Below are positions 3,036-24,567 of a stretch of DNA of 64,000 bases, piece after piece. This DNA is from Acidimicrobiia bacterium (GTDB lineage: Bacteria > Actinomycetota > Acidimicrobiia > Spongiisociales > ZC4RG35): contig DATBIX010000029.1 in NCBI GenBank assembly GCA_036556665.1, forward strand, positions 6,429-70,428. The letters run 5' to 3'. The notes under the pieces were generated by a model. It saw only the letters and a program-made list of their open reading frames with translations. It was not told the DNA's origin and searched no databases. Each line of letters opens with the position of its first letter. Within the stretch, counting starts at the first letter, position 1. The position numbers and the translations under genes were made by a program.

Positions 3036-3049
3036 GGGACTTCCGGCCC
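3036..3049 (+). promoter_or_regulatory. DosR/DevR-like box upstream of hemerythrin-like gene
   Basis: GGGAC-TTCC-GGCCC; 24 nt later GATAGT (-10-like, 3074-3079), then 6 nt to ATG 3086. Confidence 0.6.
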
Positions 3050-3085
3050 TTCCCCGACGGAGTCACTGGATCAGATAGTTGGGTC

Positions 3086-3553
3086 ATGAGCTCGACACTC
3101 CAGCACGATTCCCCGAGCCCACTGGTCAGGGCCAACCACCGCCGACGCGCTCTCCATGAGGCGATGACCCGGCTCGAGGGGGCAATCGCCCGGCCGGTCG
3201 CCTCCGATGACTGGCTCGCCGAGGTCGATAGCGGGATGAAGGCGGTCACCAACGGTCTGCAGGCGCACATCCAGGAGGTCGAGGGGCCCGAAGGCATCAT
3301 CGCCGACATCGTGGACGTCGCCCCACGTCTCAGCGCGGCTGCCACCGAGCTGGCCAACGAGCACCACGGGATAACCGCGGCGATGCGCCGAGCCGAAACG
3401 GCCCTCGAGGCCGCCCGCCGTGGGGGTGCGACCGAGAAGACGCTGCTCCGCCGCCGGGTCACCACCCTGCTCGGACGGCTCACCATTCATCGACAGCACG
3501 GCTCCGACCTGGTGTACGACGCCTACAACATCGACATCGAGGCGGGTGACTGA
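3086..3553 (+). CDS. hemerythrin-like four-helix protein
   Basis: ATG 3086 in ORF 2738..3553; LHEAM, AHIQEVE, LANEHHG, IHRQHGSD His/Glu pattern. Confidence 0.6.
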   Translation: MSSTLQHDSPSPLVRANHRRRALHEAMTRLEGAIARPVASDDWLAEVDSGMKAVTNGLQAHIQEVEGPEGIIADIVDVAPRLSAAATELANEHHGITAAMRRAETALEAARRGGATEKTLLRRRVTTLLGRLTIHRQHGSDLVYDAYNIDIEAGD

Positions 3554-6441
3554 CCTCCTGGGGCACGGCGATCGTCCCCCGACCAGACTGAGGCCTCGCC
3601 TTCGGTGCCCAGTCGCCGGGCGATCAGCTTCCGCAGCTCGGCTGCCCAGAGCACAAGGCTCGCCAGCGCGATGCAAATCGACCAGTCACGCGGTCCGAGC
3701 GGGACAGTGCCGAAGGCCTGATTGAGCCACGGGGCTTGGACCACCGCGACCTGAAGGAGCCCCGACAAGGCAACCGCACCCCAAAGCCACCCATTCGTGA
3801 ACAGGCTCCTGAAGGCGCTGCTTCGATCCGATCGTGCGTTGAAGCAATTGAACAGTTGGGCAAAGACCAGGGTGGTGAAGGCCATCGTGCGCGCCTCGTC
3901 GATCGTGCCGGTTCCCTCGAAGAGCCCACCGGGGAGCCCAAGGTCGAGGGCGGTCAACGTGACCACCGCCATCACCAACCCGACCCAGATGATCCCGATC
4001 CACATCTCCTTGTCGATGACCCGCTCGGTGAGATGCCGGGGTGGCCGGAGCATCACGTCGTGGGGGGGCGGCTCGACGCCCATGGCAAGTGCGGGCCCTG
4101 TGTCGGTGAGCAGGTTGATCCACAGGATCTGGGTGGCGAGAAGCGGCACGGCCACCGCCCCTCCCGCCTGTTCCAGCCCGATCACCCCGGCCAGGACCAC
4201 CCCGAGGAACATGGTCAAGACTTCCCCGGTGTTGGACGACAGGAGGAAGCGAAGGAACTTCCGGATATTGGCGAAGATGCCCCTCCCCTCGCGCACGGCA
4301 GCGATGATCGTGGCGAAGTTGTCGTCGGCCAAGACCATGTCAGAGGCCTCTTTGGTCACGTCTGTGCCGGTGAGGCCCATGGCCACGCCGATGTCGGCTG
4401 CTTTCAGCGCAGGGGCATCGTTCACCCCGTCACCGGTCATGGCGACGATGTTGCCCTCGGCCTGAAGTGCCCTGACGATCCGCAGCTTGTGCTCGGGAGC
4501 GACTCGGGCGAAAACGGTGGCACTCCTCACCACCGCACTCAGCCCATCGTCGTCCATCTCCTCCAGCTCGGAGCCGGTGACGACTGCCTCTTGCTCGGAA
4601 ATGCCCAGGTCCCCCGCGATCCGGGCCGCGGTGAGTGGGTGGTCGCCGGTGATCATCAGGATCCGGATCCTCGCCTCGAGGGCGTCGGCCACGGCGGCCC
4701 GCGCCTCGGGGCGGGGCGGATCGATGATCCCAACCGTTCCCAGGTAGATCATCTCCTGCTCCACGGCATCTTCGTCACTGCTGCTCGCCCCATCGGGGAG
4801 AGGGCGGTAGGCAACGGCCATGGTTCGCAGTGCCTGACCGGCGAGCCGGTCGACCGTGGCGAGTATCTGTCGGCGGCGCTCCTCGGTGAGCGCTCGCTTT
4901 TCGCCCGCCACCAGCTCCAGGGTGCATCGGGCGAGAAGGACGTCGGGCGCCCCTTTGGTGACCACGTCGACCTGACCGTCACGCTCGGCGTCGGCCTGCA
5001 GGGTGGTCATCAGCTTCCGCTCGGAGCTGAACGGGATCTCACCGACTCGCCGGAATCGGGCCTCGCGCGACGCGGTGAGCCCGAGTTTCGCCTCGGCGAC
5101 GAGGAAGGCGCCCTCGGTGGGATCGCCATGGATCACCCATTCACCGTTCTCCCGACGCAGGACCGCGTCGTTGGCCAGGCTGCCTCCCATCAAGACCAGG
5201 CCGACCTCCTCGAGGAGCGGCCCCTCAGGTATTGGCTCATCCCCCGCCAGCACCTCGCCCTCCGGCCGGTAGCCGGTGCCGGTCACGTCGACCTCCCCCG
5301 ACGGAGTCGCCACCTTCACGAGGGTCATCTCGCTTCGGGTCAGAGTGCCGGTCTTGTCCGAGCCCACCACCGAGGCCGAGCCGAGCGTCTCGACCGACGA
5401 CAGCTTCTTGACGATGGCGTTCTTGTGAGCCATGCGTTGCACGCCGAGGGCAAGCACAAGGGAGAGGACAGCGGGGAGACTCTCTGGCACCGCGGCCACC
5501 GCAAGGGACACCCCCACCAACAGCACCGCGACGAAGTCGGCGGGCTCCCGGATCTCGCTGCCGAGGAGGATCGTGCCCACGACCACCGCGGAGATGATGA
5601 TCACAGCGATCCCGAGGGCACGGCCGATGGCGTCTACCTCGCGCTGCAGTGGCGTGCGCGCCTCCTCGGTTGTATCGAGGAGCCGAGCGATGTTTCCCAT
5701 CTCACTGGCCATCCCGGTGGCCGTCACGATGGCGCGTCCCCGGCCTCTGGTCACAGCGGTGCCGTTGAACACCATGTTGGTCCGGTCGCCGAGAGAGGAG
5801 GGCTCGTCGAGAGGAGCCGTGCTCTTGCTGACCGGCTCACTCTCACCCGTCAGCGACGCCTCGGCCACCATCAGGGACGCCACGTCGAACACCCTCGCAT
5901 CTGCGCTGACCGCGTCACCCTCGGCGAGGAGCAGGACGTCTCCAGGCACGACTTCGACGGAAGGCACCTGCATCTCCTCGCCATCGCGCAGGACGGATGC
6001 AGATGTCGAAGCCATCTCCTGTAGCGCGGCCACCGCGCGCTCGGCGCGCGCCTCCTGAACGTACCCGAGGATGGCGTTGGCGATCACGATCACCAGGATC
6101 ACCAATGCCTCGAAGGGCACGTCCTCGGCTCCCTCGATGGCCCAGACCGCGAGAGACACCACGACTGCGGCCAGCAGGAGGTAGACCAGCGGGTCGGCGA
6201 GATGGGAGAGGAACTTGCGCCAGCGTGGGACCGGTGGCTCCGATTCGAGCCGGTTCGGCCCGAATCTCTCCAGACGGGCCGATGCGTCACCCGGCGTCAG
6301 GCCACGGCTGGTCTCACAACCCAGCCCTGAGGCCACCTCATCCGCCGAACGCAACCAGGGCTGATCGGGAAGGGCTGTCTCGACCGGGGTCTCGGGCACG
6401 TCGAAACGGTAGGCGACCAGGGTGGGTGTCTCGGGAGACAC
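3523..6441 (-). CDS. cation-translocating P-type ATPase, P2A (Ca2+/CtpF-like)
   Basis: TGES, DKTGTLT, KGAPD, GDGVND; TM4 VPESLP, TM5 SSNTGE, TM6 INLLTD. Confidence 0.92.
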   Translation of the reverse strand: MSPETPTLVAYRFDVPETPVETALPDQPWLRSADEVASGLGCETSRGLTPGDASARLERFGPNRLESEPPVPRWRKFLSHLADPLVYLLLAAVVVSLAVWAIEGAEDVPFEALVILVIVIANAILGYVQEARAERAVAALQEMASTSASVLRDGEEMQVPSVEVVPGDVLLLAEGDAVSADARVFDVASLMVAEASLTGESEPVSKSTAPLDEPSSLGDRTNMVFNGTAVTRGRGRAIVTATGMASEMGNIARLLDTTEEARTPLQREVDAIGRALGIAVIIISAVVVGTILLGSEIREPADFVAVLLVGVSLAVAAVPESLPAVLSLVLALGVQRMAHKNAIVKKLSSVETLGSASVVGSDKTGTLTRSEMTLVKVATPSGEVDVTGTGYRPEGEVLAGDEPIPEGPLLEEVGLVLMGGSLANDAVLRRENGEWVIHGDPTEGAFLVAEAKLGLTASREARFRRVGEIPFSSERKLMTTLQADAERDGQVDVVTKGAPDVLLARCTLELVAGEKRALTEERRRQILATVDRLAGQALRTMAVAYRPLPDGASSSDEDAVEQEMIYLGTVGIIDPPRPEARAAVADALEARIRILMITGDHPLTAARIAGDLGISEQEAVVTGSELEEMDDDGLSAVVRSATVFARVAPEHKLRIVRALQAEGNIVAMTGDGVNDAPALKAADIGVAMGLTGTDVTKEASDMVLADDNFATIIAAVREGRGIFANIRKFLRFLLSSNTGEVLTMFLGVVLAGVIGLEQAGGAVAVPLLATQILWINLLTDTGPALAMGVEPPPHDVMLRPPRHLTERVIDKEMWIGIIWVGLVMAVVTLTALDLGLPGGLFEGTGTIDEARTMAFTTLVFAQLFNCFNARSDRSSAFRSLFTNGWLWGAVALSGLLQVAVVQAPWLNQAFGTVPLGPRDWSICIALASLVLWAAELRKLIARRLGTEGEASVWSGDDRRAPGGQSPASMSML

Positions 6442-6484
6442 CGAGGTCTCCCAGGTGGCCGGGCCTTTCCAGGACGAAGACCGA

Positions 6485-8104
6485 TCAGCCTTCCACGATC
6501 ACCTTTGCCCTCATCCAGGGGTGAGGAGTGCAGAAGTACTCGAACTCACCGACCTCGGTGAAGGTGTAGCTGAACGTGGCGCCCGTCTCGAGGAATCCTG
6601 AATCGAACGACCCGTCCACCGCAGTGACCGTGTGCATCTGACCCTCGTCGTCGTTGGTCCAGGTCACGGTGGTGCCGACACTCACCGTGAGCGTGTTGAC
6701 GGAGTAGTCCGCGGGGTCCTCCGTGGCTTCGAACTCGTCGGGTGCGCTCAGATCCTGGGTGGTCCATGCACCGGGGAGTATCGAGACGCTCTCACCGGTG
6801 GCCGCACCCTCGGTGGTCCCGGTCATCTCGTGACCGCCCGCTGCCGCCTCACCGGTCCCGGTGACATCCTCGAAGATCTCCGGATTCGGATCGCCCGAGA
6901 TGACTATCTGACCGATGGCTCCCTTGTCGACTGCCCGGGCCAGCGCGTGGTCGACGAGGACGACGGTCGAAGGGACCTGACCGATCAGCTCCACGACGGT
7001 CCCTCCGCCGGCCGGGACCAGAGTGGTCTGCGAGCCGCGCAGAGGTGGGTTCAAGAGAGCCGCCTCGGGATAGACCTTGTCCCAGTGGGACCCGATGGGG
7101 TGGAAGTTGGAGTCGAGGTTCAGGCCCGCGTTGATGAAGTACAGGCGGGCACGCTCGCCCACAGCCATCTGCAAGGCGTTGTCCCCGGTGAGGGAGCCGA
7201 CGGCTCCGTTGAACACGACGAACGTCGGAGCCTCGTCGGTCACCGCGGCGCGATCGAACTCGACGACACCCGGCTGCCGGTCGACGGTGTAGTACTCGGA
7301 CTGGACCATGTACCACTCGTGAGCCACTACGGGTAGCGGGTCCTCGGGGTCGACCAGGATCCCACCGAACATCCCGTGTGAGATATGGGCCGGGATGTCC
7401 CCGTAGGCGCAGTGGTACATGAAGAATCCCGGATAGAGGAGGCGGGCTTCGATGGTCTTGGTCTCACCGGGAGCGACTGTCGTCGCTTCGGCGCCGCCAC
7501 CCTGGCCGGTCACCGAGTGGAAGTCCACGTTGTGCGGGTTGTGACTCGTGGACGGGTTGGTGATGGTGAAGCGAAGGACATCGCCGACACGGGCCCTGAT
7601 CACCGGTCCCGGGGTGCCAACGACCAGGCCGTCGGGGCCATCGAGAAGGCGATATCCCCAGGTCTCGGTCTCGATCCCCGTGGCGGGGTCGATCGTCGAA
7701 ATCCCCTCGACCACCTCGAAGTGGACCTCGACGATCGCCTGGTCCGCCCGACCCGACGGGGGAGGCATCTGTGGTGCGATGGCGACGTTGACCTCGTCGG
7801 ACGGCACGACAGAGAGTTGGTCCTTGGGCATCAGCGTCGGCATGACGTCCTCCGGGAGCTCCACGGTCCCGGCTACGTCGCCCGATGCCAGATAGGCGTC
7901 GATCCTGTCCGAGACGATCGCGTCGTCCACGGAGTCACGACTGGCGGTGATCATGAGCGAGGCGACGCCTATGCCCACCGCGATGAGAGTCCCAACGATT
8001 CCGAGGGCCACCAGAGTGCCCAGTGTGTAATGCGGGTGTGGAGGTGGGGGCGGCGGCTGCGTGTGGCCGGGTTGGGCTTGTGCACGATCCACTGTCTGCG
8101 CCAT
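6485..8104 (-). CDS. nirK: copper-containing nitrite reductase with N-terminal TM anchor and C-terminal cupredoxin domain
   Basis: HNVDFH, YHCAYGDIPAHISHGMFG, NFHPIG; C-terminal HTVTA...YFCTPHPWM type-1 Cu site. Confidence 0.9.
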   Translation of the reverse strand: MAQTVDRAQAQPGHTQPPPPPPHPHYTLGTLVALGIVGTLIAVGIGVASLMITASRDSVDDAIVSDRIDAYLASGDVAGTVELPEDVMPTLMPKDQLSVVPSDEVNVAIAPQMPPPSGRADQAIVEVHFEVVEGISTIDPATGIETETWGYRLLDGPDGLVVGTPGPVIRARVGDVLRFTITNPSTSHNPHNVDFHSVTGQGGGAEATTVAPGETKTIEARLLYPGFFMYHCAYGDIPAHISHGMFGGILVDPEDPLPVVAHEWYMVQSEYYTVDRQPGVVEFDRAAVTDEAPTFVVFNGAVGSLTGDNALQMAVGERARLYFINAGLNLDSNFHPIGSHWDKVYPEAALLNPPLRGSQTTLVPAGGGTVVELIGQVPSTVVLVDHALARAVDKGAIGQIVISGDPNPEIFEDVTGTGEAAAGGHEMTGTTEGAATGESVSILPGAWTTQDLSAPDEFEATEDPADYSVNTLTVSVGTTVTWTNDDEGQMHTVTAVDGSFDSGFLETGATFSYTFTEVGEFEYFCTPHPWMRAKVIVEG

Positions 8105-8514
8105 CAGTTGCCTCCTTGGAGCTCGGTCTGCAACACGAAGACCTCGTCGAAGCCATCATCGAGAACGCGCCTGGCTTCCACCCAGATGGCGTGGATGGGA
8201 CAGGAGATGTCTCCAGGGCACGGGGCATCCCGGAGGACGCACCGCCCACTGGCCGAAGGCCCCTCGGTGGCTTCGATCACCTGGAGAAGACGGGCCTGGT
8301 GGGCCGACTCGGTGAGCTCATAGCCCCCTCCGGGTCCTCGCCGGGAAACGACCCAGCCTCCCCGGACCAGGCCCGCCATGACCTGGGGCAGGAACGAGGA
8401 CGTGGTACCGATCGAACGGGCGAGCTCGGCTCGGCCCAGCCTCCCACCGGCCTCGAGGAGTGCCCGCATAGCCTCGAGGGCGAGATCGGTGCGACGGCTG
8501 AATGTGATGTTCAT
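8104..8514 (-). CDS. Rrf2 family transcriptional regulator with three Cys (Fe-S type)
   Basis: SRRGPGGGYEL; C-x6-C-x5-C (CVLRDAPCPGDISC); ATG 8514; TGATG overlap with nirK. Confidence 0.9.
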   Translation of the reverse strand: MNITFSRRTDLALEAMRALLEAGGRLGRAELARSIGTTSSFLPQVMAGLVRGGWVVSRRGPGGGYELTESAHQARLLQVIEATEGPSASGRCVLRDAPCPGDISCPIHAIWVEARRVLDDGFDEVFVLQTELQGGN

Positions 8515-8540
8515 TAGTTGTTGAGTCGACAACTGATGAA
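8510..8540. promoter_or_regulatory. 12-7-12 inverted repeat over the Rrf2 start (candidate Rrf2 operator)
   Basis: TTCATTAGTTGT-TGAGTCG-ACAACTGATGAA, 11/12 arm match, AT-rich in a GC-rich genome. Confidence 0.6.
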
Positions 8541-8552
8541 TTCGATCCAGTA

Positions 8553-8566
8553 GGGCCATTGGTCCC
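8553..8566. promoter_or_regulatory. DosR/DevR-like box between rrf2-nirK and mgtE
   Basis: TA-GGGCC-ATTG-GTCCC-TA. Confidence 0.6.
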
Positions 8567-8628: not shown

Positions 8629-9624
8629 TTGGCCAGGAGCCAAGTCATCGAGTCTTCACCCCGGCCAGAGCCGACAAGCGAGAGCGCATTCGCCCTCGCC
8701 TCCACTCGTGTCCCCATCGCCGGTCGCCACGACACGGTGTCGGAGGTCCTCAGACGGCTCCGCGCCAATGGACGGCTCGAGACCATCGCCGACATCGCCG
8801 TGGTCGAAGACGGCCATCTGCTCGGGCTGGTCCCCATCGAGGATCTCCTCGCCGCTCCAGACGACGCGGTCGCCGCCACGCTGATGGATCCCGACCCGCC
8901 CCTGGTTCGGCCCGGTGTCGACCAGGAGGTGGCGGCCACCAAGGCGGTCACACGCGGTGAGAGCAGTCTGGCCGTGGTCGACGAGGACGGCCTCTTTCTC
9001 GGCCTGATCCCTCCGCATCGGATGCTCAGCGTCCTGCTGGAGGAGCATCGGGAGGACCTGGCTCGTCTCAGCGGGTACCTGCATCAGAGCGAGTCGGCGC
9101 GGTCAGCCAGCGAAGAAGGTGTCGCCCTTCGCCTTTGGCACAGGTTCCCCTGGCTGGTGGTAGGGCTGGCTTCGGCGATGGCGGCAGCCGTCATCGTCTC
9201 GGGCTTCGAACAGGGCCTCGCCTCCCACATCGAGCTGGTGTTCTTCATCCCGGGAATCGTCTACATCGCCGATGCGGTGGGAACGCAGACAGAGGTCCTG
9301 GTGGTGCGAGGGCTGTCCGTCGGCGTCTCGGTCCGCAGGATCGTCGGCAGGGAGCTTGCCACCGGATTGGCGCTCGGGCTCATCCTCGGCATCCTCGCCT
9401 TTCCCGCAGTGCTCTACTGGGTCGACCGGCCGGTGGCGTTGACGGTGTCGACCAGCATTTGGGCCGCATCGACCGTGGCGACCCTCGTCGCCATGGCCCT
9501 CCCCTGGCTGCTATCACGGGCCGGGTTGGACCCGGCTTTTGGGAGCGGGCCGCTGGCGACGGTGATCCAGGACCTGCTCTCCCTGGCCATCTACTTCGCC
9601 TTTGCCGGCCTGTTCGTGCTCTGA
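8629..9624 (+). CDS. mgtE: magnesium transporter MgtE-like (CBS pair + TM domain, no MgtE N-terminal domain)
   Basis: CBS repeats ([25 protein letters not shown]), [25 protein letters not shown]; start uncertain. Confidence 0.85.
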
Positions 9625-10626
9625 TCGGCCCGAGACGACGAGAACGGCGGCACCGGTCACCCTGTCCTGGGCCAGGTCGAGCAGGGCCCGACTCGCCTCG
9701 GAGAAGTCGTAGGCCACGGTGGTGGGCCTGATCGGGATGCGCGCGGCGATGTCGAGAAACTCACGGCCATCCTGACGGGTGTTGGCAGTGACCGACCTGA
9801 TCTGACGCTCCTCGAACAGCCATCGATACTCGAGCGCCGGGATATCGGTCAGGTGGATGCCGGCGATCGCCAACGTGCCGCCCCTGTGCAACGCCCGCAA
9901 AGCGGGCGGGACGAGATCCCCGACCGGGGCGAATAGGATGGCGGCATCGAGTCTCTCCGGAGGCTCGTCATACGCATCTCCCGCCGAGGAGCATCCCAGG
10001 TCCAGGGCCAGTCGGCGCGCCTCCTCAGACCGGGTCATCACATGCACCGTCGCCCCCTGGTAGATGGCGATCTGAGCGGTCAGATGAGCGGAGCCTCCGA
10101 ACCCGTAGATGCCGAGCCGTCCCCCTGGTGGCAACTCGGCACGGCGAAGGGCGCGATATCCGATGATCCCGGCGCAGAGCAAGGGAGCAGCCTCGTCATC
10201 GCTGAATACCTCCGGTATGGCATAGGCGTATCCCTCGGCCACGACCGCGTGCTCGGCGTATCCCCCGTCGGCGTCCCAGCCGGTGAACTCCGGTGACACA
10301 CAGAGGTTCTCAGAGCCGGCGAGGCACCACGGACAGGCGCCGCAGGTCTGCCTCAGCCAGGCGATCCCGACCCTGTCCCCGACTCCGAAGCGACTTGCCC
10401 CGGGGCCGATCGCATCGACCACTCCGACCACCTCGTGGCCCGGCACCACCCGGGCCCGATGGACTGGCAGATCACCCTCGACCACGTGGAGATCGGTGCG
10501 ACACACCCCGCACACCGAGACCCTGACCCTGATCTCGCCTCGACCCGGCGATGGCGTGGCCACGTCGGCGAGTTGGAGCGGTTCGCTCTCCATCGGTCCG
10601 GGGGTGTGAACCTGCCAGGCGCGCAT
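9514..10626 (-). CDS. zinc-binding alcohol dehydrogenase family protein
   Basis: [23 protein letters not shown]...ENLC, YGFGGSA. Confidence 0.92.
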
Positions 10627-10637
10627 GGTGCGGGAAA

Positions 10638-11588
10638 CTAGGAGCCGGTGTCTTTGCGTGCCCGCCCGGTGAGACCCTCTGTGAGCAAGGCCACCAGGAG
10701 CGCCTGCTCGGTGTGAAGCCGGTTCTCCGCCTGATCCCCGACCACCGATTGCCTCCCATCGAGAACGGCATCGACGACCTCGTCACCACGATGAGCCGGG
10801 AGACAATGCATGAAGATGGCGTTGGGCGAGGCCAGGTCCATCATCGCCTCATCGACCCGGAATGGGGCGAGCAGGGCCATTCGCCTCTCCTGGGGCTCCG
10901 GCGGGTCGCCAATGGGCCACACGTCGGTGTAGACGACATCGGCATCCTTGACCGCCTCGGCCGGGTCGTGACCGAGGTCGATGGTGGCTCCGGTTCGCCG
11001 GGCCACTGCCCTTGCCCGGTTCACCACTCCCCTGTCGGGAGCAAGTTCGGCCGGGGTGCCGACGACGAGGTGCAAACCCGCCAGGGCCGCAGCCTGGATG
11101 AGGCTGTGAGCCACATTGTTGCCATCGCCGAGGTAGGCGACCCGCCGGCCCTGCAGTGAGCCGAGGTGGTCTCTGACGGTGAGCATGTCCGCCAGAGCTT
11201 GACATGGGTGATGCATGTCGGTCAGGGCATTGATCACGGGGATCGTCGCCGCCGATGCGAATCTGGTCACTTGGCTGTGCTCGAAGGTTCCGATCACAGC
11301 AGCGCTCGCGTATCGGGACACGACCATGGCAGTGTCTTCGATCGTCTCAGCCCCGTCGAGCTGCAGCTCGGCGGGCCCAACGAATTCGGCCTCGCCGCCA
11401 AGGTGGGTGATGGCAGCGGCGAACGAGATGCGGGCCCGGGTGGAAGGCGTGGAGAAGTAGCAGAAGACGATCTCGTCGGCGAGAAGGCCGTCGCGCAAGT
11501 GCGGCATCTCACGGGCCTCCAGAGCTAGGTCGAGGAGCCGGTTGAGATCGTCCCGTGTGAGGTCGAGGACCTCGAGATAGTCCTTCAC
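10638..11588 (-). CDS. ornithine carbamoyltransferase-like transcarbamylase, divergent active site
   Basis: [23 protein letters not shown] present; STRA, IGTF and DVWPIG replace STRT, IRTF and SMG; GTG start 11588. Confidence 0.85.
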
Positions 11589-11665: not shown

Positions 11666-11679
11666 GGGACCTAATGCCC
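11666..11679. promoter_or_regulatory. DosR/DevR-like box between OTC-like gene and amino acid permease
   Basis: GGGAC-CTAA-TGCCC; AACGAT (11703-11708) 23 nt downstream. Confidence 0.55.
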
Positions 11680-11740
11680 TTGTCGCCGGGCGAGATCATC
11701 CGAACGATGAGGGGGTTGGGCCTGACAAGGAGGTGCTCTC

Positions 11741-13129
11741 GTGACCGTGCAGAGTCACACGAAGAGGCGAGCCCTGGGGCCTTGGTTGGCGACCGCCCTG
11801 GTCGTGGGCAACATGATCGGGTCGGGCGTCTTCCTTCTCCCCGCCGCGCTCGCCGAATACGGTGGTATCAGCCTCATCGGATGGCTGTTCACCGGTGCCG
11901 GAGCCGTGCTCCTGGCAATCGTCTTCGCCCGGCTGGGCCGGGCCTACCCGCGGACCGGCGGCCCCTATGAGTACAGCCGACGGGCCTTCGGGGAGTTCGT
12001 CGGGTTCCAGACGGCCTGGGGCTACTGGATCGCGATCTGGGCCGGGAACGCAGCCATCGCCGTGGCTTTCGTCGGCTACCTGGCAGTGTTCTGGGAGGGC
12101 TTGGCGGACAACGCCCTGCTCGCCGCGTTGGTGGCGGTTGGGGCCATCTGGCTGCTGACCTGGGTCAATGCCCTCGGGGTGAAGCAGGGCGGATGGGTCC
12201 AGGGGATCACGACGGTCTTGAAGGTCCTGCCCCTGCTCGCCATGGCGACAATCGGGCTCTTCTTCATGGACACCGCCAACTTCACCCCGTTCAACCTGAG
12301 CGGCGGCTCGGCTTTCGCCGCGGTGACTGCGGTGGCAGCCTTGACTCTCTGGGCATTCATCGGACTGGAGTCGGCCACTGTGCCGGCTGAAGACGTGCTC
12401 GATCCTGAGCGCAACATTCCGAGAGCGACCATCTGGGGGACGGTCGGCACGACGCTGATCTACATCCTCAGCACGGTTGCGGTGCTCGGGATCATCCCGG
12501 CGGCGACCCTTGTCAACTCGACGGCTCCTTTCGCCGATGCAGCGGAGTCTGCCTTTGGCGGCTGGGCGGGGACCCTGGTGGCGATCGGTGCCATCATCGC
12601 CACGTTCGGTGCGCTGAACGGCTGGATCCTGTTGCAGGCCCAGATCCCGATGGCGGCGGCTCGTGATCGGCTCTTTCCGAGCAGGTTTGGTCGCACCAAT
12701 CGAGCCGGCGCACCGGTGTTCGGGCTGGTGGTCTCCAGCGCCCTCGTGACGCTGCTGATGCTGGCCAACTACACCAAGGGGCTCGTCGAGCTGTTCACCT
12801 ACATGCTGCTCCTGGCAACGCTGACCACGCTGATCCCCTATGCCTATTCGGCGGCCGCCCAGCTGATGCTGTTCGTCACGGATCGGGAGAAGTTCTCCGG
12901 GATGCGCCTGGCCAAGGACTCCGTGATCGCCTCACTGGCGTTCGCCTACTCGGTTTGGGCCATCTACGGGGCGGGCCAGGAGGTTGTGTTCTACGGGCTG
13001 CTCCTCTTGCTTGCAGGGATCCCCATGTACGTGTGGGTGAAGTGGAGGAACAGGGTCCACGACGAGAAGCTGCCCGACGGGATCGTCATCCCCGACTCCC
13101 CTGCAGCGCTCTTCGACGGTTCGATCTGA
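11741..13129 (+). CDS. APC family basic amino acid antiporter (AdiC/ArcD-like)
   Basis: NMIGSGVFLLP, LWAFIGLESA, about 12 TM segments. Confidence 0.88.
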   Translation: MTVQSHTKRRALGPWLATALVVGNMIGSGVFLLPAALAEYGGISLIGWLFTGAGAVLLAIVFARLGRAYPRTGGPYEYSRRAFGEFVGFQTAWGYWIAIWAGNAAIAVAFVGYLAVFWEGLADNALLAALVAVGAIWLLTWVNALGVKQGGWVQGITTVLKVLPLLAMATIGLFFMDTANFTPFNLSGGSAFAAVTAVAALTLWAFIGLESATVPAEDVLDPERNIPRATIWGTVGTTLIYILSTVAVLGIIPAATLVNSTAPFADAAESAFGGWAGTLVAIGAIIATFGALNGWILLQAQIPMAAARDRLFPSRFGRTNRAGAPVFGLVVSSALVTLLMLANYTKGLVELFTYMLLLATLTTLIPYAYSAAAQLMLFVTDREKFSGMRLAKDSVIASLAFAYSVWAIYGAGQEVVFYGLLLLLAGIPMYVWVKWRNRVHDEKLPDGIVIPDSPAALFDGSI

Positions 13130-15584: not shown

Positions 15585-15687
15585 TGGACGGGCACCGACC
15601 CGGGACGCACCATCGAATCAACAAGCCTCGGCCGCGTCGGGCCACGCCGGGTCAAAGGCATCAGGTCCGAGAGGGGAGGTGAACTGT

Positions 15688-16134
15688 ATGGAACTGAAGT
15701 TGTGGTCTCCGTTCCTCGATCTCGACAAGGAGTGGCGCTTCGACTTCCCGCGCCTCCTCGACTTCCCCATGCTGGGTCGTGAGTTGACCGGATTCGAATT
15801 CCGGCCGGCCATCGATCTGGTCAAGGAGGAGGGCGAGCTGGTGGCCACTATCGAGCTGCCCGGAATGGACCCGAAGGACATCGACGTCTCCATCGAGGGC
15901 GACTACCTGACCATCAAGGGCGAGAAGCACGAAGAGAAGGAGGTGTCCGAGGACGATCGCTACTTCCGTGAGCGGAGCTATGGCAAGTTCGAGCGGCGCT
16001 TCCGGCTCCCGGAAGGGACCAGCGCCGACAAGATGAGCGCGATGTACGACAAGGGCGTGCTCACACTGCATATCACGCTTCCGGAGGAGAAGCAGCTAGA
16101 GCCCCTCCACATCCCGATCGAGGCCAAGACCTGA
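15688..16134 (+). CDS. Hsp20/alpha-crystallin small heat shock protein
   Basis: ELPGMDPKDIDVSI, ERSYGKFERRFRLP, YDKGVLTLHI; RBS GGAGGT. Confidence 0.93.
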   Translation: MELKLWSPFLDLDKEWRFDFPRLLDFPMLGRELTGFEFRPAIDLVKEEGELVATIELPGMDPKDIDVSIEGDYLTIKGEKHEEKEVSEDDRYFRERSYGKFERRFRLPEGTSADKMSAMYDKGVLTLHITLPEEKQLEPLHIPIEAKT

Positions 16135-16221: not shown

Positions 16222-18984
16222 GTGCTCCCCGGGCCCTCACTGATGGTGCCGAGCCGGCAAGACCAGGCCGACGTAGCCGAGATGGCAACCGAGGAGGTCT
16301 ATCGGGCCCTCGGCACATCGCCGTCGGGTCTGACCCAGGAGGAGGCGGCCGAGCGGCTCGCCGTTCATGGCCCCAACACGATCAGCCCGATCTCACGGAG
16401 ACGCCTCGTATCGAGGCTCCTGTCGAACTTCGTGCACGTGATGGCGATTCTGCTTTGGGTTGGCGGCGCCGTTGCGTTTCTCGCCGATCTGCCGCAGCTC
16501 GGAGTGGCCATATGGGTGGTCAACGTGGTCAACGGCATCTTCAGCTTCTGGCAGGAGTTCAAGGCGGAAAAGGCGACGGAAGCCCTGCTCCGCCTTCTCC
16601 CCTCCACGGCCACGGTCCTTCGGGAAGCGGTGCTCGAGCAGGTGGATGCCACCGCACTCGTACCCGGCGACGTGGTCTTCATCGAAGAGGGTGACCGCAT
16701 CTCGGCCGACGGCCGGCTGGTGGAGCACGTGGCGCTGCGCGTCGACCAATCCACCCTCACCGGCGAGTCACGCTTGGTCCGCAAGGCCTCGGATCCGGTC
16801 GACACGGCAGGAAGGAGCCGCCTCGAGCTGCCCAATCTGGTGTTTGCCGGTACCACGGTGGGGTCGGGGCGGGGAAAGCTGGTCGTCACCTCGACCGGGG
16901 CCGGGACCGAGCTCGGCGGCATCGCCGCCCTGACCGGGTCACTGGCCGACACCCCCAGCCCCCTCCAGCGCGAGTTGAGGAGGGTCAGTCTCACTGTCAG
17001 CATCGTGGCGATCGGTGTCGGAGTGGTCTTCTTCATCCTGGCGCTCGCCCTGGGTGGTTTGCCCCTGGCCACCGGCTTCGTCTTCACCCTGGGGATGATC
17101 GTCGCCTTCGTCCCCGAGGGGCTCCTCCCCACCGTGACCCTCGCTCTCGCGATGGGCACCCAGAGAATGGCGGCACGCAACGCCTTGGTGAGGAAGCTGT
17201 CGGCGGTGGAGACCCTGGGGTGCACAACGGTGATTTGCACCGACAAGACCGGCACACTGACTCAGAACGAGATGACCGTCCGCTCGGCCCTCGTCGGCGG
17301 TCGGCGATATGAATTCGAGGGAGTCGGGTACCAGCCTGAGGGTCGGATCCATCCCGGGCCGGACGATGGCCTGGTCACACTTCTGGCCACCGCGGCTCGC
17401 GCCTCCAATGCGCGCCTGGTGCACAACGATGGAGACACCGGGAGACTGACCGTGGTCGGCGACCCGACCGAGGGCGCAATCCTCACCGCCGCAATGAAGG
17501 CGGGAATCGATCTCGACGTCCTGAGCTCGGATGCTCCCCGCGTCGCCGAATGGCCGTTCGACCCGGTTAGGAAGCGAATGAGCTCCGTGGCGCGCATGGG
17601 CGGGGAGTTGGTGGTCGCGACGAAGGGGGCTCCCGCCGAGCTCCTCGAGCGCTGCTCCTCACTCCATTCCGCCGATGGAACGCTGGCCCTCGAAGTGGAC
17701 GACCGAAAAGGGATCATCCAGGCGGTGAATGCGGCTGCGGCCGAGGGCCTGAGAGTCCTGGGGGTTGCACGTCGGGTGATCGACCATCTCCCCGATGAGC
17801 GCGAGGACTTCGAGATCGACCTCGAGTTCATCGGGCTGGTCGCCATGCACGACCCGCCGAGACCCGAGGTCGAGGCGGCCATCGCCAGTTGTAGGAGCGC
17901 GGGCATCCGGATCGTGATGATCACAGGGGACTATGGGATAACCGCTGAAGCGATCGGGCGCAGGATCGGCATGGTCGGTGAGGGCCAGGTGAGGGTGGTC
18001 AACGGCGACGAGATGGACGCCATCGATGACGCCGCCCTCGGCGCGATCCTGGACGATGAGGTGATCTTCGCCAGGGTGACCCCTTCTCACAAGATGCGGG
18101 TGGTCGCCGCTCTCCAGGATCGCGGTGCGGTGGTTGCGGTCACCGGGGACGGGGTCAACGATGCCCCGGCTCTCAAACTGGCCGACATCGGGGTCGCCAT
18201 GGGGCAGTCCGGCACCGACGTCGCCCGGGAGGCAGCCGACATCATCCTGCTCGACGACAACTTCGCATCGATAGTCGCCGCCATCGAGGAAGGGCGGGCC
18301 GTCTATGACAACATCAAGAAGTTCACGACCTACATCCTCACGTCCAACGTGCCCGAAGCCGTCCCGTTCGTGGTCTTCGCATTCTCCGGTGGGCGAATCC
18401 CGCTCGCATTGGGCGTGATGCACATCCTCGCCATCGACCTGGGCACCGACCTCGCCCCTGCCCTCGCCTTGGGGGCGGAGCCACCCGAGCCTGGTGTGAT
18501 GGACCGGCCACCCCGCTCGCTCGATGCCCGACTCATCGACCGGCCCCTACTTGCCCGCGCCTATCTCCTGCTCGGGCCGGTCCAGGCGCTCTTTGTCATG
18601 ATTGCCTTCTTCGGGGCCTACCGCCTGCAGGGTGTCGAGGACTGGTCCAACCTGGCCTCGTCGGGGACGATCTATCTCGCCGCCACGGCAATGGCGCTGG
18701 CAGGGGTGGTGACCACGCAAATCGGCAATCTCTTCGCCCAGCGATCGGCTCGGGTCTCGCTGCGCCGTATCGGTCTGGGAGGCAATCGCCTTCTCTGGTG
18801 GGGGATACTCTCCGAAGTGGTGGTCATTCTCCTCATCGTCTATCTGCCCCCGCTGCAGAGGGTCATCGGCACGGCTCCGTTCCCGCCGATCGGGTGGGCC
18901 TGGCTGCTTCTCGGAGTCCCCCTGCTGCCGCTGGCCGACGAAATCAGGAAAGCGCTCACCGCCCACCGGGGAAGAGCACGATGA
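16222..18984 (+). CDS. cation-translocating P-type ATPase, P2C (Na+/K+- or H+/K+-ATPase)-like
   Basis: TGES, DKTGTLT, GDGVND; IVAFVPEGLLPTVT, YILTSNVPEAVPF, ILAIDLGTD; start may be ATG 16243 or 16282. Confidence 0.88.
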   Translation: MLPGPSLMVPSRQDQADVAEMATEEVYRALGTSPSGLTQEEAAERLAVHGPNTISPISRRRLVSRLLSNFVHVMAILLWVGGAVAFLADLPQLGVAIWVVNVVNGIFSFWQEFKAEKATEALLRLLPSTATVLREAVLEQVDATALVPGDVVFIEEGDRISADGRLVEHVALRVDQSTLTGESRLVRKASDPVDTAGRSRLELPNLVFAGTTVGSGRGKLVVTSTGAGTELGGIAALTGSLADTPSPLQRELRRVSLTVSIVAIGVGVVFFILALALGGLPLATGFVFTLGMIVAFVPEGLLPTVTLALAMGTQRMAARNALVRKLSAVETLGCTTVICTDKTGTLTQNEMTVRSALVGGRRYEFEGVGYQPEGRIHPGPDDGLVTLLATAARASNARLVHNDGDTGRLTVVGDPTEGAILTAAMKAGIDLDVLSSDAPRVAEWPFDPVRKRMSSVARMGGELVVATKGAPAELLERCSSLHSADGTLALEVDDRKGIIQAVNAAAAEGLRVLGVARRVIDHLPDEREDFEIDLEFIGLVAMHDPPRPEVEAAIASCRSAGIRIVMITGDYGITAEAIGRRIGMVGEGQVRVVNGDEMDAIDDAALGAILDDEVIFARVTPSHKMRVVAALQDRGAVVAVTGDGVNDAPALKLADIGVAMGQSGTDVAREAADIILLDDNFASIVAAIEEGRAVYDNIKKFTTYILTSNVPEAVPFVVFAFSGGRIPLALGVMHILAIDLGTDLAPALALGAEPPEPGVMDRPPRSLDARLIDRPLLARAYLLLGPVQALFVMIAFFGAYRLQGVEDWSNLASSGTIYLAATAMALAGVVTTQIGNLFAQRSARVSLRRIGLGGNRLLWWGILSEVVVILLIVYLPPLQRVIGTAPFPPIGWAWLLLGVPLLPLADEIRKALTAHRGRAR

Positions 18985-20437: not shown

Positions 20438-20451
20438 GGGTCTTTCGGCTC
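20438..20451 (+). promoter_or_regulatory. DosR/DevR-like box (weaker) upstream of GT4 operon
   Basis: GGGTC-TTTC-GGCTC; GAGACT (20476-20481) 24 nt downstream. Confidence 0.4.
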
Positions 20452-20484
20452 TATGGCGGGAACGACTGGGCGAAGGAGACTCGA

Positions 20485-21673: not shown

Positions 21674-22741
21674 ATGGAGCAGCTGCTGCCGGAGCCGAGG
21701 ATCGACCATCTGGCCCGGCTCAGTGACGACATCGGGATCTTCGAGCACGCCTCCGGCCTCGAACCGCGGCGAGAGCTCGGCTACACCACCGAGGATGCGG
21801 CCCGTGCCTTGATCGTTACGGTCAGGTGGCAGCCCCAAACCGAAATGACCATGGCGCTGACACGCACCTACCTCGCCTTCGTGGCGGGATCGATTGTCGA
21901 GGGTGGGCCGATTCGGAATCGCATGACAACGGCGGGGGAATGGGTGGGACCTCCCTCGGCCGACGCTCATGGGCGCACCATCTGGGGATTGTGCGTGGCC
22001 GCGGCCGAATCCGCGGCCAACGAAACGGTCGAGGCGGCACTTTCCTGCCTGGAGCGGATCGGCGTCGTCGACGACCCGTCGATCCGCCCGTGGGTCTACA
22101 CCGGGATCGGCGTTGCCGAGCTGCTCTCTGCCCTGCCCGGCCATGGTTGGGCACGCCTCATCGCCAACCAGGTGCTCGGGCGCCTGCCCGGGCCCAGCGG
22201 TTCCGGGTGGATCTGGCCCGAGCCGCGGCTCACCTATGACAACGCCCGGTTGACCCAGTGCCTCCTCGACCTGGGTCGGGTGTTGGACCACCCGGAAGCG
22301 ATGGAGGACGGGCTCCGTCTGCTCGGCTGGCTTGTGACGTTGGAGCGCAACGGTGACCACTTCTCGTTCACCCCGGTCGGAGGCAGGGGCCCGGAGGACA
22401 CGTCACCCGCCTTCGACCAACAGCCCCTCGAGGCGAGTGCGATGGCTGATGCGTGCGTCGCAGCCTGGGAGGTCGATGGCGACGAGCGGTGGCTCGAACT
22501 CGCCTACCAGGCCGCACAGTGGTTCACGGGACGCAACGATGGGGCCGTCTCACTTTACGACCCGCAGACCGGGGCGGGGCATGACGGGCTCACCGAGGGG
22601 GGCGTCAACGCCAACGCGGGAGCAGAGTCCACCATCTCGGCCCTCGCAGCACTGCAACGTGGCAGACTCATCGAGCCCCACCGAGCTTCGGGCTGGAAGA
22701 AGACCATGCCGGTGGAGACTCTCCCGGCGGCACGAGCCTGA
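21674..22741 (+). CDS. six-hairpin glycosidase-like protein (partner of GT4)
   Basis: GYTTEDAARAL, YDNARL, FDQQPLEA, HDGL, NAGAESTIS motifs seen in GT4-associated (alpha/alpha)6 proteins. Confidence 0.7.
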   Translation: MEQLLPEPRIDHLARLSDDIGIFEHASGLEPRRELGYTTEDAARALIVTVRWQPQTEMTMALTRTYLAFVAGSIVEGGPIRNRMTTAGEWVGPPSADAHGRTIWGLCVAAAESAANETVEAALSCLERIGVVDDPSIRPWVYTGIGVAELLSALPGHGWARLIANQVLGRLPGPSGSGWIWPEPRLTYDNARLTQCLLDLGRVLDHPEAMEDGLRLLGWLVTLERNGDHFSFTPVGGRGPEDTSPAFDQQPLEASAMADACVAAWEVDGDERWLELAYQAAQWFTGRNDGAVSLYDPQTGAGHDGLTEGGVNANAGAESTISALAALQRGRLIEPHRASGWKKTMPVETLPAARA

Positions 22742-22742
22742 C

Positions 22743-23687
22743 ATGACACAAGCGAGAAGCCAGCAACTATTCACCCGACACGAGGGCAACCCGATTCTCA
22801 CCGCCCTCGACTGGCCCTACACGGTCAACGCGGTGTTCAACCCCGGGGCCACCACCGGGCCCGATGGCGACACCATCCTCCTCGTCAGGGTCGAGGACCG
22901 GGCCGGTCTGTCCCATCTCACCGTTGCCCGCAGTCGGGATGGCCTGAACGACTGGAAGATCGACACCCAACCCTCATTCGCCCCGCAGACCTCGACATAC
23001 GCCGAATGTTGGGGGGTCGAGGACCCCCGGATCACCAAGGTCGGTGATGAGTACCTCATCGCCCACACTGCGGTCTCGCGGAGCGGGCCGCTGGTCTCCC
23101 TGGTGTCGACCACCGACTTCGTCGACTTCACACGCCGCGCCATCGTGTCGCCCCCCGAGAACAAAGACGCGGCCTTGTTCCCCGTCAAATTCGACGACCG
23201 CTACGCCATGATCCACCGGCCGGTCTACTTCGCCGACGGCGGCGCCGCCCACATGTGGATCTCCTACAGCCCCGACCTCAGGCATTGGGGCGACCATCGG
23301 ATCCTCATGGAGAGCCGTAGGTCTGGTTACTGGGATCGCGACAAGGTGGGTCTCGGTCCGCCCCCGCTTCGGACCGACCAGGGATGGCTGATCATGTTCC
23401 ACGGGGTGAGGGACACTGCCGCGGGAGCGCTCTATCGGGCCGGGCTGGCCGTGCTCGACCTCGAGGAGCCGACCACGGTGTTGGCTCGAGCCGACGAGTG
23501 GGTGCTGGGGCCGGAGGTTGAGTACGAGCGAATGGGTGACGTGCCCGGTGTGGTGTTTCCCTGCGGTTGGATCGCCGACGACGACGGCATGCTTCGCCTC
23601 TACTACGGAGCGGCAGACACGTGTGTGGCCGTGGCCACGGCGCGTATCGACGATCTGGTCGCCTTCGCCTTCTCGCACACGATCTAG
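22743..23687 (+). CDS. GH130 family glycoside phosphorylase/glycosidase
   Basis: NAVFNPGA, GVEDPRIT, NKDAALFP, MIHRP, PGVVFPCG, YYGAADTC. Confidence 0.9.
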   Translation: MTQARSQQLFTRHEGNPILTALDWPYTVNAVFNPGATTGPDGDTILLVRVEDRAGLSHLTVARSRDGLNDWKIDTQPSFAPQTSTYAECWGVEDPRITKVGDEYLIAHTAVSRSGPLVSLVSTTDFVDFTRRAIVSPPENKDAALFPVKFDDRYAMIHRPVYFADGGAAHMWISYSPDLRHWGDHRILMESRRSGYWDRDKVGLGPPPLRTDQGWLIMFHGVRDTAAGALYRAGLAVLDLEEPTTVLARADEWVLGPEVEYERMGDVPGVVFPCGWIADDDGMLRLYYGAADTCVAVATARIDDLVAFAFSHTI

Positions 23688-23688
23688 A

Positions 23689-23904
23689 TCAGGCGGACCG
23701 TTTGCCCTGATGCATCGGCTTGTGATGCTCGATGACGGCGTCGCTGCCGGGGAACAGCACCACCTCGCGCCCGTCGGCTTCCCAACGAACCAGATAGGGA
23801 GGTTGTCCCTTCTCGCCGTGTACCTCGAGGATCTCGCCTTCGGCGTCGGCTTGTCCGGTCCGGTGGCCCTTGATCACCAGACGATCGCCGGGTTTTGCCT
23901 GCAT
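23689..23904 (-). CDS. DUF1918 domain protein (Rv0569-like)
   Basis: MQAKPGDRLVI...GEILEV...PPYLVRW...PGSDA; RBS GGAGGT. Confidence 0.88.
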   Translation of the reverse strand: MQAKPGDRLVIKGHRTGQADAEGEILEVHGEKGQPPYLVRWEADGREVVLFPGSDAVIEHHKPMHQGKRSA

Positions 23905-23958
23905 GATGACCTCCAACGCTCTGCGTCGAGAATGACACCGGAGTGACCGCCGACACTA

Positions 23959-23972
23959 GGGCACAAAGACCC
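23959..23972 (-). promoter_or_regulatory. DosR/DevR-like box upstream of DUF1918
   Basis: TA-GGGCA-CAAA-GACCC-AA (+ strand); minus-strand CATTCT (23934-23929) 24 nt downstream. Confidence 0.6.
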
Positions 23973-23986
23973 AACGCGGCAGCGAT

Positions 23987-24373
23987 TCAGGGCTGACGGG
24001 CCTCGACTTCGGCTGCGATCGCATCGAGATCGCCGGCAACCGGCTCGTGGGTCAGCACCTTGAGCCCCTTGACCACCTCCGGGTACCTCTCCGCCTGCCC
24101 GGGTCGGATGACGACACGGATCGGGATGTCGCTGCTGAGCGACTCCTTGTATCGGGAGAGGATCGCCCGGTGCTGGGCTCGATCGAGGTCGAGCTCGAAC
24201 ACGATCCCTTGGGCGCCCTCGGCCAGCTCACAACCGGCGCCGGTGAGGATCGGGCAAATCTGGCCCTCTCCCGGCCCGGGGCAGGTCATCACCCGGTGGC
24301 CGAGTTGTTCCAGGAATCGGTGATCCGTCGGCTCGCTGCCACCCGGGATATCGAAGAGGATGTAGTCGTCCAT
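23987..24373 (-). CDS. hypothetical protein with CPGP-x5-CP-x6-C motif
   Basis: ATG 24373 with GGAGGT RBS; TCPGPGEGQICPILTGAGC. Confidence 0.7.
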   Translation of the reverse strand: MDDYILFDIPGGSEPTDHRFLEQLGHRVMTCPGPGEGQICPILTGAGCELAEGAQGIVFELDLDRAQHRAILSRYKESLSSDIPIRVVIRPGQAERYPEVVKGLKVLTHEPVAGDLDAIAAEVEARQP

Positions 24374-24419
24374 CGCACCTCCTTTGACCCAGCATCCCGT
24401 CACCGGCGTTGGGCCACCA

Positions 24420-24433
24420 GGGGATTAAGTCCC
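24420..24433 (-). promoter_or_regulatory. DosR/DevR-like box upstream of the Cys-motif hypothetical gene
   Basis: GGGGA-TTAA-GTCCC; minus-strand GATGCT (24396-24391) 23 nt downstream. Confidence 0.6.
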
Positions 24434-24504
24434 AAAGCCAACTCTTTGTCCGTGACCGGGATCTTGCCGCGCTTCCAGCTGATCACTTATCCAACGGTTA
24501 CAAC

Positions 24505-24518
24505 GGGTCATTCGACCC
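24505..24518 (+). promoter_or_regulatory. DosR/DevR-like box upstream of fadD
   Basis: GGGTC-ATTC-GACCC; GATAGT (24542-24547) 23 nt downstream. Confidence 0.55.
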
Positions 24519-24567
24519 TTGTCAACCGACCGAGGAGATCGGATAGTCGAAGACAGGAGGTCGAATC

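Follow-up and report, generated by a model that had tools for sequence, protein, structure and literature searches.

To our knowledge, nearly all work on the DosR/DevR dormancy switch has been done in Mycobacterium, or in Streptomyces, where the regulator is called OsdR. The box recognized in M. tuberculosis and M. smegmatis is an 18-20 bp palindrome, TTSGGGACTWWAGTCCSGAA, with the stringent consensus GGGACTTNNGNCCCT (PMC6448022), and binding studies with M. tuberculosis DevR found G5 and C7 of each half-site to be essential, and none of the 47 footprinted boxes lacks C7 (PMC3177182). At all eight promoters mapped in that organism, 33-34 bp separate the proximal Dev box from the transcript start. 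Cryo-electron microscopy (cryo-EM) of the DosR activation complex showed that K179, K182 and N183 read GGGACT, and that the downstream subunit contacts region 4 of sigma-A and the upstream subunit the alpha C-terminal domain (PMC13486717). The Streptomyces coelicolor OsdR-OsdK pair (SCO0204/0203) has as its site a 16-nt palindrome, AGGGCC-N4-GGCCCT, with the published consensus AGGGCCGATCGGCCCT (PMC5069765). We describe here a set of comparable boxes in a 64,000-nt stretch of Acidimicrobiia DNA (contig DATBIX010000029.1, positions 6,429 to 70,428; hereafter the window) and in orthologous promoters of related genomes. We judge it probable, at roughly 80%, that these boxes are sites for the dimer of a DosR/DevR-type (NarL family) regulator whose gene lies outside the window.

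The window is 66% G+C, with 92% of its length coding and 8% intergenic; genes were called from third-position GC together with Pfam and NCBIfam matches. An initial annotation of this DNA had listed nine intergenic 14-mers, one of them (54258) only as a possible site, as instances of a recurrent GGGNCNNNNGNCCC pattern. Every one of the nine is where it was said to be. Taken literally, the pattern is not enriched (7 matches, 7.6 expected from shuffles), and it fits the sites at 3036, 8553, 24505 and 54258, the remaining sites deviating at 1-2 positions. With only 4 of 9 sites fitting and no enrichment, the literal pattern is too loose to serve as proof, and we therefore replaced it with a weight matrix built from orthologous Acidimicrobiia promoters (55 sites after removal of near-duplicates), from which the window itself was left out. 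For this comparison, 69 loci around orthologues of unk138, a 128-aa Cys-motif protein encoded in the window (23987-24373, minus strand), were fetched from species-representative genomes. The box is conserved in 65 of these 69 loci, in whose raw upstream sequence a conserved block is separated by a variable spacer from another, smaller block, after which come a ribosome-binding site and the start codon.

The element defined by the 55 sites is a directional 15-mer, G[G/T]GAC[T/C]TTyGnC[C/T]CT. Positions 3, 5, 12 and 14 are invariant (55/55) and position 15 is T in 54/55; position 2 is T in 35 sites and G in 20, and position 10 is G in 38/55 and T in 16/55. Positions 3 and 5 correspond to the G5 and C7 of M. 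tuberculosis, and position 12 to the G5 of the other half-site. When the matrix was run on the window, all nine listed sites fell within the top 14 matches (12.5-19.0 bits), with 54258, the doubtful one, at 14.5 bits; a tenth site, missed in the initial annotation, was found at 14554 with 17.3 bits. At a threshold of at least 13 bits, there were 11 matches in the window against 1.3 expected, and the maximum among 100 shuffles was 5. At 12 bits or more, 10 matches were intergenic and 5 coding, a density ratio of 23-fold (Fisher p = 2e-8). Sharpened in this way, the observation of the initial annotation is confirmed. The five coding-region matches (12-15 bits), at 10874 (+), 38806 (-), 36067 (-), 4577 (+) and 33444 (-), are most likely due to chance; four of them have no -10 hexamer, and the match at 36067, inside modC, has CAACGT at the right offset.

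The boxes are coupled to a -10 element at a fixed distance. Beyond the box, the 55-site profile shows A at position 39 and T at position 43, which places an NAnnnT hexamer exactly 23 nt past the 14-mer. The initial annotation had noticed such a hexamer at seven of eight sites; in the orientation preferred by the matrix, 9 of the 10 window sites have it 23-24 nt past the 14-mer, its first base always other than T, and 8553 is indeed the exception. We also examined box contexts from other genomes, 119 once redundancy and the matrix-building sites had been removed, and observed xAxxxT at offset 23 in 47/119 and at offset 24 in 21/119, compared with 0-7 at each of the other offsets from 5 to 44. 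This result is an independent confirmation of the geometry, since the -10 hexamer was not included in the matrix. In mycobacteria, where ANNNT is the normal -10, VANNNT promoters are weaker than TANNNT promoters (PMC6448022), which supports the earlier description of the hexamers as weak -10 elements. The end of the 14-mer lies about 36-37 nt before the predicted start, or 33-35 bp for an 18-20 bp box, a distance that agrees with that of M. tuberculosis, the starts being predicted here and mapped there; in both cases the box abuts the -35 region. The ATGs at 3086, 14604 and 8514 coincide with predicted starts, 37-39 nt past the box. Segments 3074-3088 and 14592-14606 share the arrangement GATnnT-TGGGTC-ATG, the A of the ATG being 37 nt past the box, and from this run of hexamer, TGGGTC and ATG the transcripts at 3036 and 14554 should both be leaderless.

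The ten promoters are distributed as follows, three of the boxes (8553, 23959 and 24420) being read on the minus strand. The top score, 19.0 bits, belongs to GGGTCTTTCGGCTCT (20438-20452, plus strand; -10 GAGACT, 20476-20481), placed to drive a plus-strand operon for a GT4 glycosyltransferase (GTG at 20509 or 20548, end at 21672), unk355 (21674-22741) and a GH130 mannoside phosphorylase-like protein (22740-23687). The newly found site, GTGACTTTGTTCTCT (14554-14568, plus strand, 17.3 bits; -10 GATCAT, 14592-14597), precedes the leaderless gene for a Germane/Gmad2 lipoprotein (14604-15551, plus strand). Close in score is GGGACTTCCGGCCCT (3036-3050, plus strand, 17.1 bits; -10 GATAGT, 3074-3079), before an apparently leaderless hemerythrin-like open reading frame (ORF; 3086-3553, plus strand). 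A DUF1918 (Rv0569-like) gene (23689-23904, minus strand) is served by GGGTCTTTGTGCCCT (23958-23972, minus strand, 16.9 bits; -10 CATTCT, 23929-23934), and unk138 by GGGACTTAATCCCCT (24419-24433, minus strand, 15.4 bits; -10 GATGCT, 24391-24396). On the plus strand, GGGTCATTCGACCCT (24505-24519, 14.5 bits; -10 GATAGT, 24542-24547) precedes a FadD-type acyl-CoA ligase gene (24568-26304), with which a shikimate kinase gene (26329-26859) is probably co-driven.

At the exceptional site, GGGACCAATGGCCCT (8552-8566, minus strand, 14.1 bits) stands upstream of a minus-strand operon for an Rrf2 protein (8104-8514), a NirK-type nitrite reductase (6485-8104) and a P-type ATPase (3523-6441). It has no clean NAnnnT; TCGACT is found at 8524-8529 and then a degenerate GACTCA in the place of the hexamer, and the Rrf2 ATG at 8514, 39 nt past the box, is at about the predicted transcript start. 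The site GGGACCTAATGCCCT (11666-11680, plus strand, 13.1 bits; -10 AACGAT, 11703-11708) precedes genes for an amino-acid permease (11741-13129) and an ArcE-like protein (13141-14502), both on the plus strand. The lowest score is that of GGGCCGTTGGACTCT (15571-15585, plus strand, 12.5 bits; -10 CACCAT, 15608-15613), upstream of an HSP20/alpha-crystallin gene (15688-16134, plus strand), from which transcription possibly reads through into a second P-type ATPase gene (ATPase2, 16222-18984, plus strand), itself followed by two TrkA genes. Finally, the outlying GGGCCGTTCGCCCCT (54258-54272, plus strand, 14.5 bits; -10 GAGAAT, 54296-54301) would give a leader of about 4 nt to a 406-aa ORF of no assigned family (54312-55532, plus strand).

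We next consider how the boxes fare in other species. In 9/9 genome-locus orthologues, the HSP20 gene is preceded at about 72-96 nt by a box that scores 12 bits or more; among the metagenome loci, 2/4 reach 15.5 bits and the other 2/4 reach 9.0. DUF1918 orthologues are boxed in 3/4 cases in one set and 2/2 in a second (5/6 in total). For GT4, 11/12 non-redundant metagenome orthologues, at 48-65% identity, are boxed at 13-20 bits, and the single unboxed orthologue is at 45% identity. The internal genes unk355 and GH130 served as negative controls, as did ATPase2: we found no box of their own among the orthologues of these genes, apart from one in-gene match for unk355. Boxes were also found for 2/2 orthologues of the hemerythrin-like ORF (L020, L021), 1/1 of FadD (L004, 15.2 bits) and 1/1 of Rrf2 (L028, 17.8 bits); the 54312 ORF had no orthologue among the loci compared. 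NirK-type genes have boxes of their own in L074 and L164; support for the nirK-type gene comes from 3 species. ArcE-like orthologues are boxed directly upstream by GGGACCTAATGCTCT, almost the window variant, in L001 and by a sequence identical to that of the window, GGGACCTAATGCCCT, in L169; the box is weaker in L171 and absent in L170 (3-4/5 supported). Across the loci, boxed genes include those for universal stress proteins (USPs), phosphoenolpyruvate synthase (PEP synthase) or pyruvate phosphate dikinase, the NiFe hydrogenase small subunit, pyruvate:ferredoxin oxidoreductase, flavodoxin and P-type ATPases, and in the relatives genes for USP, CBS protein, flavodoxin, pyruvate:ferredoxin oxidoreductase and a hydrogenase subunit stand behind boxes or beside boxed genes.

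These observations bear on the proposal, made with the initial annotation, that the regulon overlaps the classical mycobacterial one and has recruited members from outside it. The classical set includes HspX, Rv0569, CtpF, USPs and CBS/Hrp1, and the overlap is plain, as HSP20, DUF1918 and P-type ATPase genes lie in the window. Recruitment is supported by conserved boxes for the Cys-motif protein, the GT4-unk355-GH130 operon, the ArcE-like gene and the nirK-type gene, and more thinly for the hemerythrin-like protein and FadD. Regarding the ArcE-like ORF (13141-14502), it is annotated elsewhere as 'predicted GTPase' or 'cyclic 2,3-diphosphoglycerate synthase', and among solved structures it has only a local match to the latter enzyme. 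The arginine synthetase ArcE has been described and placed beside ornithine carbamoyltransferase (OTCase) (PMC11032458), and the annotation of the ORF together with its adjacency to an OTCase gene (10638-11588, minus strand) fits that description; by this analogy the ORF encodes a putative arginine synthetase, a possible orthologue of TK2200. It adjoins both the OTCase and the permease genes, and we found no carbamate kinase gene in the window.

Genes for a suitable regulator were found in related loci. In L074-L077, an operon 5 kb from unk138 pairs a CBS gene with one for a REC-GerE protein of 243 aa; the helix of the latter, LAEKTVKNYVS, is that of DevR and keeps K179, K182 and N183. The best solved structure for this L074-type regulator is DevR (3c3w, E = 4e-43, 151 bits, compared with 113 for VraR). 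The same operon recurs in L084, L085, L086 and L163-L168, with genes for USP, P-type ATPase, NirK, Germane protein, flavodoxin, pyruvate:ferredoxin oxidoreductase and pyruvate phosphate dikinase as neighbours. Its CBS gene (137 aa) overlaps the DevR-like gene (L074, 15437-16565; L084, L085 and L086, about 9526-10741; L163-L168), and no kinase gene is adjacent in L074 or L084-L086. The M. tuberculosis regulon likewise includes a CBS protein, Rv2626c, but in Acidimicrobiia the gene has become part of the regulator's own operon. In four aligned species, the promoter of this operon reads GGGTnGAAnGnCCC, 7 nt, GGGACCTTTGnnnn, 23 or 24 nt and nAnnnT, that is, tandem boxes 21 bp apart centre to centre with the weaker one proximal, and L164 shows the same layout in a fifth species. 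In L163-L166, a second DevR (3c3w, E = 5e-69, 235 bits, compared with 151 for VraR) is divergent from a GAF-HisKA_3-HATPase kinase gene. The one GAF domain of this kinase matches the haem GAF of DosT (2vzw) with E = 1e-41 and that of DevS with E = 1e-35; the mycobacterial DosS and DosT kinases have two GAF domains. The CBS-linked and the DosS-paired paralogues share the same recognition helix. The DevR family is widespread in Acidimicrobiia, many members having been named DevR by the Joint Genome Institute (JGI). L085, which has the regulator, and L033, which has the boxed unk138 and HSP20 genes, belong to the same metagenome-assembled genome (DATFBM01), so that regulator and boxed targets occur together there.

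Several other candidates for the box reader were set aside. The REC-GerE genes near unk138 in L050, L058, L006 and L029 encode proteins without the K-x-x-K-N helix, and a LuxR-STAND protein in the window (47735-49951) has the helix HTVKTQ, which is not DosR-like. The regulator in P0132 was rejected as this population's own because it comes from other samples. Near-identical contigs are present in JGI soil metagenomes, the population occurring in 3300036848, 3300049743 and 3300049587/8, and the contigs compared were of 20 kb or less; L070, the longest of the cupin-gene contigs (those being at most 4.3 kb), extends the window on its left by about 2 kb and has no regulator. We infer that this genome nonetheless encodes a regulator of the DevR type, which would bind and activate at the boxes in response to low O2 or NO.

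The box consensus, the -10 geometry, the conserved boxes and the DevR and haem-GAF kinase orthologues in related islands all agree with the DosR-type regulon originally proposed. In common with M. tuberculosis, the related Acidimicrobiia genomes have the DNA-reading residues of the regulator and the haem-GAF kinase. Shared targets are HspX-type HSP20, Rv0569-type DUF1918, CtpF-type ATPase, USPs, CBS protein, ferredoxin and flavodoxin. Autoregulation through tandem boxes is likewise common to both, the CBS-devR layout being like that of the P-S promoters, and the box geometry implies the same arrangement as in the cryo-EM complex of DosR. In contrast to mycobacteria, Acidimicrobiia have two DevR paralogues, one of them in an operon with the CBS protein. 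The targets outside the classical set are the receiver-like Cys protein, the GT4/GH130 operon, the ArcE-like enzyme and permease, NirK with Rrf2, the Germane lipoprotein and FadD, and the host is an uncultured, non-pathogenic soil lineage.

The OsdR system of S. coelicolor shares with the boxes the outer A/T and GGG...CCC, and some site cores are identical, for example CGGGACCTTCGGCCCT. Its regulon is likewise clustered around the regulator and includes similar target types: USPs, Zn-dehydrogenase, pyruvate phosphate dikinase, a PNP-oxidase-like protein and a hemerythrin-domain protein. Yet the OsdR centre is GC-rich (CCGNNCGG), whereas the centre here is T-rich (ACTTyG), and OsdR sites stand at variable distances from their genes, OsdR being tied to development. 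With a matrix from 25 published OsdR sites, only 54258, 3036 and 8553 rank high in the window; the GC-rich centre makes that matrix useless here.

A number of observations weigh against a DosR-type regulon. At a threshold of 10 bits, that same OsdR matrix gave 6 window matches where 6.3 were expected. Tandem boxes, two or more, are found at every mapped M. tuberculosis promoter, whereas the ten window promoters have a single box each: 17-26 bp upstream, we recognized no second box at any of the ten, except for a marginal 2.7-bit match at 11666. G4, highly conserved in M. tuberculosis, is replaced by a preference for T at the equivalent position 2. A consensus string served as the seed of our matrix, but the conserved block can also be seen in the raw upstream sequences. 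No REC-GerE regulator is encoded in the 64 kb window, in keeping with the earlier remark that it contains no DosR/DosS gene. Two caveats concern individual genes: the divergent OTCase gene has no box in its own orientation, and the label of the hemerythrin-like ORF derives from a sub-threshold Pfam Hemerythrin match (E = 0.014). With regard to tandem boxes, the 119 contexts showed no aggregate second-box signal, and cryptic secondary sites may be present at the window promoters.

Could the boxes be something other than DevR sites? That they are functionless GC-rich palindromes, arising by chance in a 66% G+C genome, is an explanation to which the failure of the literal degenerate pattern and the five coding matches of at least 12 bits lend some colour; it is already refuted by the 11 matches where 1.3 were expected, by the 23-fold intergenic bias, by the fixed coupling to the -10 and by the retention of boxes across dozens of species while the spacers diverged, and we give it practically no credence. 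A better case can be made for class II activator sites of the Crp/Fnr family, centred near -41.5. FNR and CRP at class II promoters also act as a dimer on a 14-16 bp palindrome at about -42, with a weak -35 and contacts to sigma region 4 and alpha, and the boxes resemble their sites in the 5-4-5 layout of the FNR box, in a centre at about -42 to -43, in a left half GTGAC (35/55 sites) reminiscent of the GTGA of CRP sites, and, in a few cases (L040, L044, L045), in the reading GTGAC-N4-GGCAC. Neither the half-site sequence nor the protein family is the same, however: the right half is GnCCC or GnCTC and not TCAC or ATCAA, as in TGTGA-N6-TCACA or TTGAT-N4-ATCAA. The islands have no associated Crp/Fnr gene, the 1.06 Mb of loci containing a single, unrelated Crp-like gene that is not beside boxes, and it is DevR orthologues with the exact reading residues of DosR that lie inside the islands behind boxes of their own, so that a Crp/Fnr activator is very improbable.

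The Rrf2 protein of the window (8104-8514), as an NsrR-like NO sensor, might itself read the boxes and control the island, being the only small regulator within it, heading the nirK operon and having a box at its own promoter. We regard this as even less probable than a Crp/Fnr activator. Only one Rrf2 orthologue was found among 70 related loci, nearly all of which have boxes; Rrf2 sites are longer and AT-rich; and the box, at about -43 before the protein's own leaderless gene, is in an activator position. A simpler reading is that Rrf2 is itself a target and gives nirK an additional level of control. A subtler alternative keeps DevR as the reader and assigns the boxes to the CBS-linked paralogue, the regulon then answering mainly to energy or adenylate status through the CBS protein and not to O2, NO or CO; the energy input is proposed because no kinase stands beside that DevR. 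It is the CBS-regulator operon that is conserved (L074, L084, L085, L086, L163-L168), L074 and L084-L086 lack an adjacent kinase, and both paralogues share the helix. Where more sequence exists (L163-L166), however, the haem-GAF kinase and second DevR are within 3-4 kb, and targets such as NirK, hydrogenase, pyruvate:ferredoxin oxidoreductase and USP fit O2 limitation; moreover, in M. tuberculosis DosT is unlinked to dosR. We consider this alternative unlikely, if less so than the two preceding ones.

Under the preferred reading, control by a DosR/DevR-type regulator, the box would lie directly upstream of a rudimentary -35 (T15-K-G) and 23-24 nt before VAnnnT, with its centre near -43. The downstream subunit of the phosphorylated dimer would contact sigma-A region 4 and the upstream subunit the alpha C-terminal domain, and these contacts would recruit RNA polymerase to promoters that are weak alone. 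The likely input would be a haem-GAF kinase of the DosS/DosT type sensing loss of O2, or NO or CO. The predicted output comprises HSP20, DUF1918, two P-type ATPases, the Rrf2-NirK operon, the arginine permease and ArcE-like enzyme, the GT4/GH130 sugar operon, FadD, the Germane lipoprotein, the hemerythrin-like protein and the receiver-like Cys protein. A more elaborate, speculative version, which we rate only slightly above the purely CBS-linked one, would have two regulators, the DosS/T-DosR pair sensing gas and the kinase-less, CBS-co-transcribed DevR sensing energy charge, with feedback on the phosphorelay by unk138, which could act as a phosphate sink or redox gate; the switch would then be towards substrate-level ATP from arginine via ArcE, nitrite reduction and a mannoside reserve, each of which may be part of it.

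The unk138 protein, judged from the sequence comparisons to be the most conserved target of the regulon, has more than 500 homologues, and all the named ones are from Acidimicrobiia metagenome-assembled genomes. Its AlphaFold model is a confident (beta-alpha)5 fold (pLDDT 83), for which the closest folds are response-regulator receiver domains (TM 0.5-0.6), among them a receiver-derived redox sensor from a streptococcus. Invariant D8, D62 and K105 would occupy the positions of the receiver acidic pocket, and an insertion holds three invariant cysteines, C31, C40 and C48. The model raises the lead, as distinct from a finding, that unk138 may be a stand-alone pseudo-receiver or redox sensor. NCBIfam and Pfam gave nothing significant for unk138, unk355 or the 54312 ORF, and no Rfam family reached its gathering score across window positions 1-64000.

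Other features of the window and of related loci are recorded here for completeness. Genes for F420H2-dependent, Ddn-like quinone reductases, at 2681-3016 (minus strand) and 55545-55994 (minus strand), each adjoin a boxed promoter pointing away from them, and the L074 orthologue of the quinone reductase gene has its own box of 17.3 bits. The convergent frames for MgtE/CBS (8629-9624, plus strand) and a zinc-dependent alcohol dehydrogenase (Zn-ADH; 9514-10626, minus strand) share about 110 nt at their 3' ends (9514-9624); the overlap is repeated in the JGI gene calls of the near-identical contigs L159 and L162, whereas L161 has a shorter ADH call (322 aa) that abuts MgtE/CBS without overlap. 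Just outside the boxed island, at 28636-37940, are genes of low-oxygen type without a box: those for a 4Fe-4S protein and an FMN-dependent lactate-type dehydrogenase, modABC, and a NiFe-hydrogenase-like ORF (31457-33109) for which the Pfam match is only partial. In L169, a P-type ATPase with a C-terminal hemerythrin domain (E1-E2_ATPase, Hydrolase and Hemerythrin; 6227-8491) is encoded directly 3' of the boxed ArcE-like gene.

Acidimicrobiia are abundant in soil and water and are largely uncultured, and our literature search found no paper linking DosR/DevR to this class. The present analysis gives good support to the view that a known regulon extends to a class in which it had not been described, where its promoter grammar and its targets differ somewhat. 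The occurrence of the same box, geometry and DNA-reading residues in a deep-branching class suggests that the promoter architecture seen by cryo-EM is ancient, and the single-box promoters bear on the question of whether tandem boxes are needed for activation by DosR. Candidates for new functions in hypoxia are the ATP-yielding arginine synthetase, a recently discovered enzyme, the GT4/GH130 mannoside operon, the copper nitrite reductase and unk138. For uncultured actinobacteria known from metagenomes, the box offers a means of reading the low-oxygen response from sequence alone.

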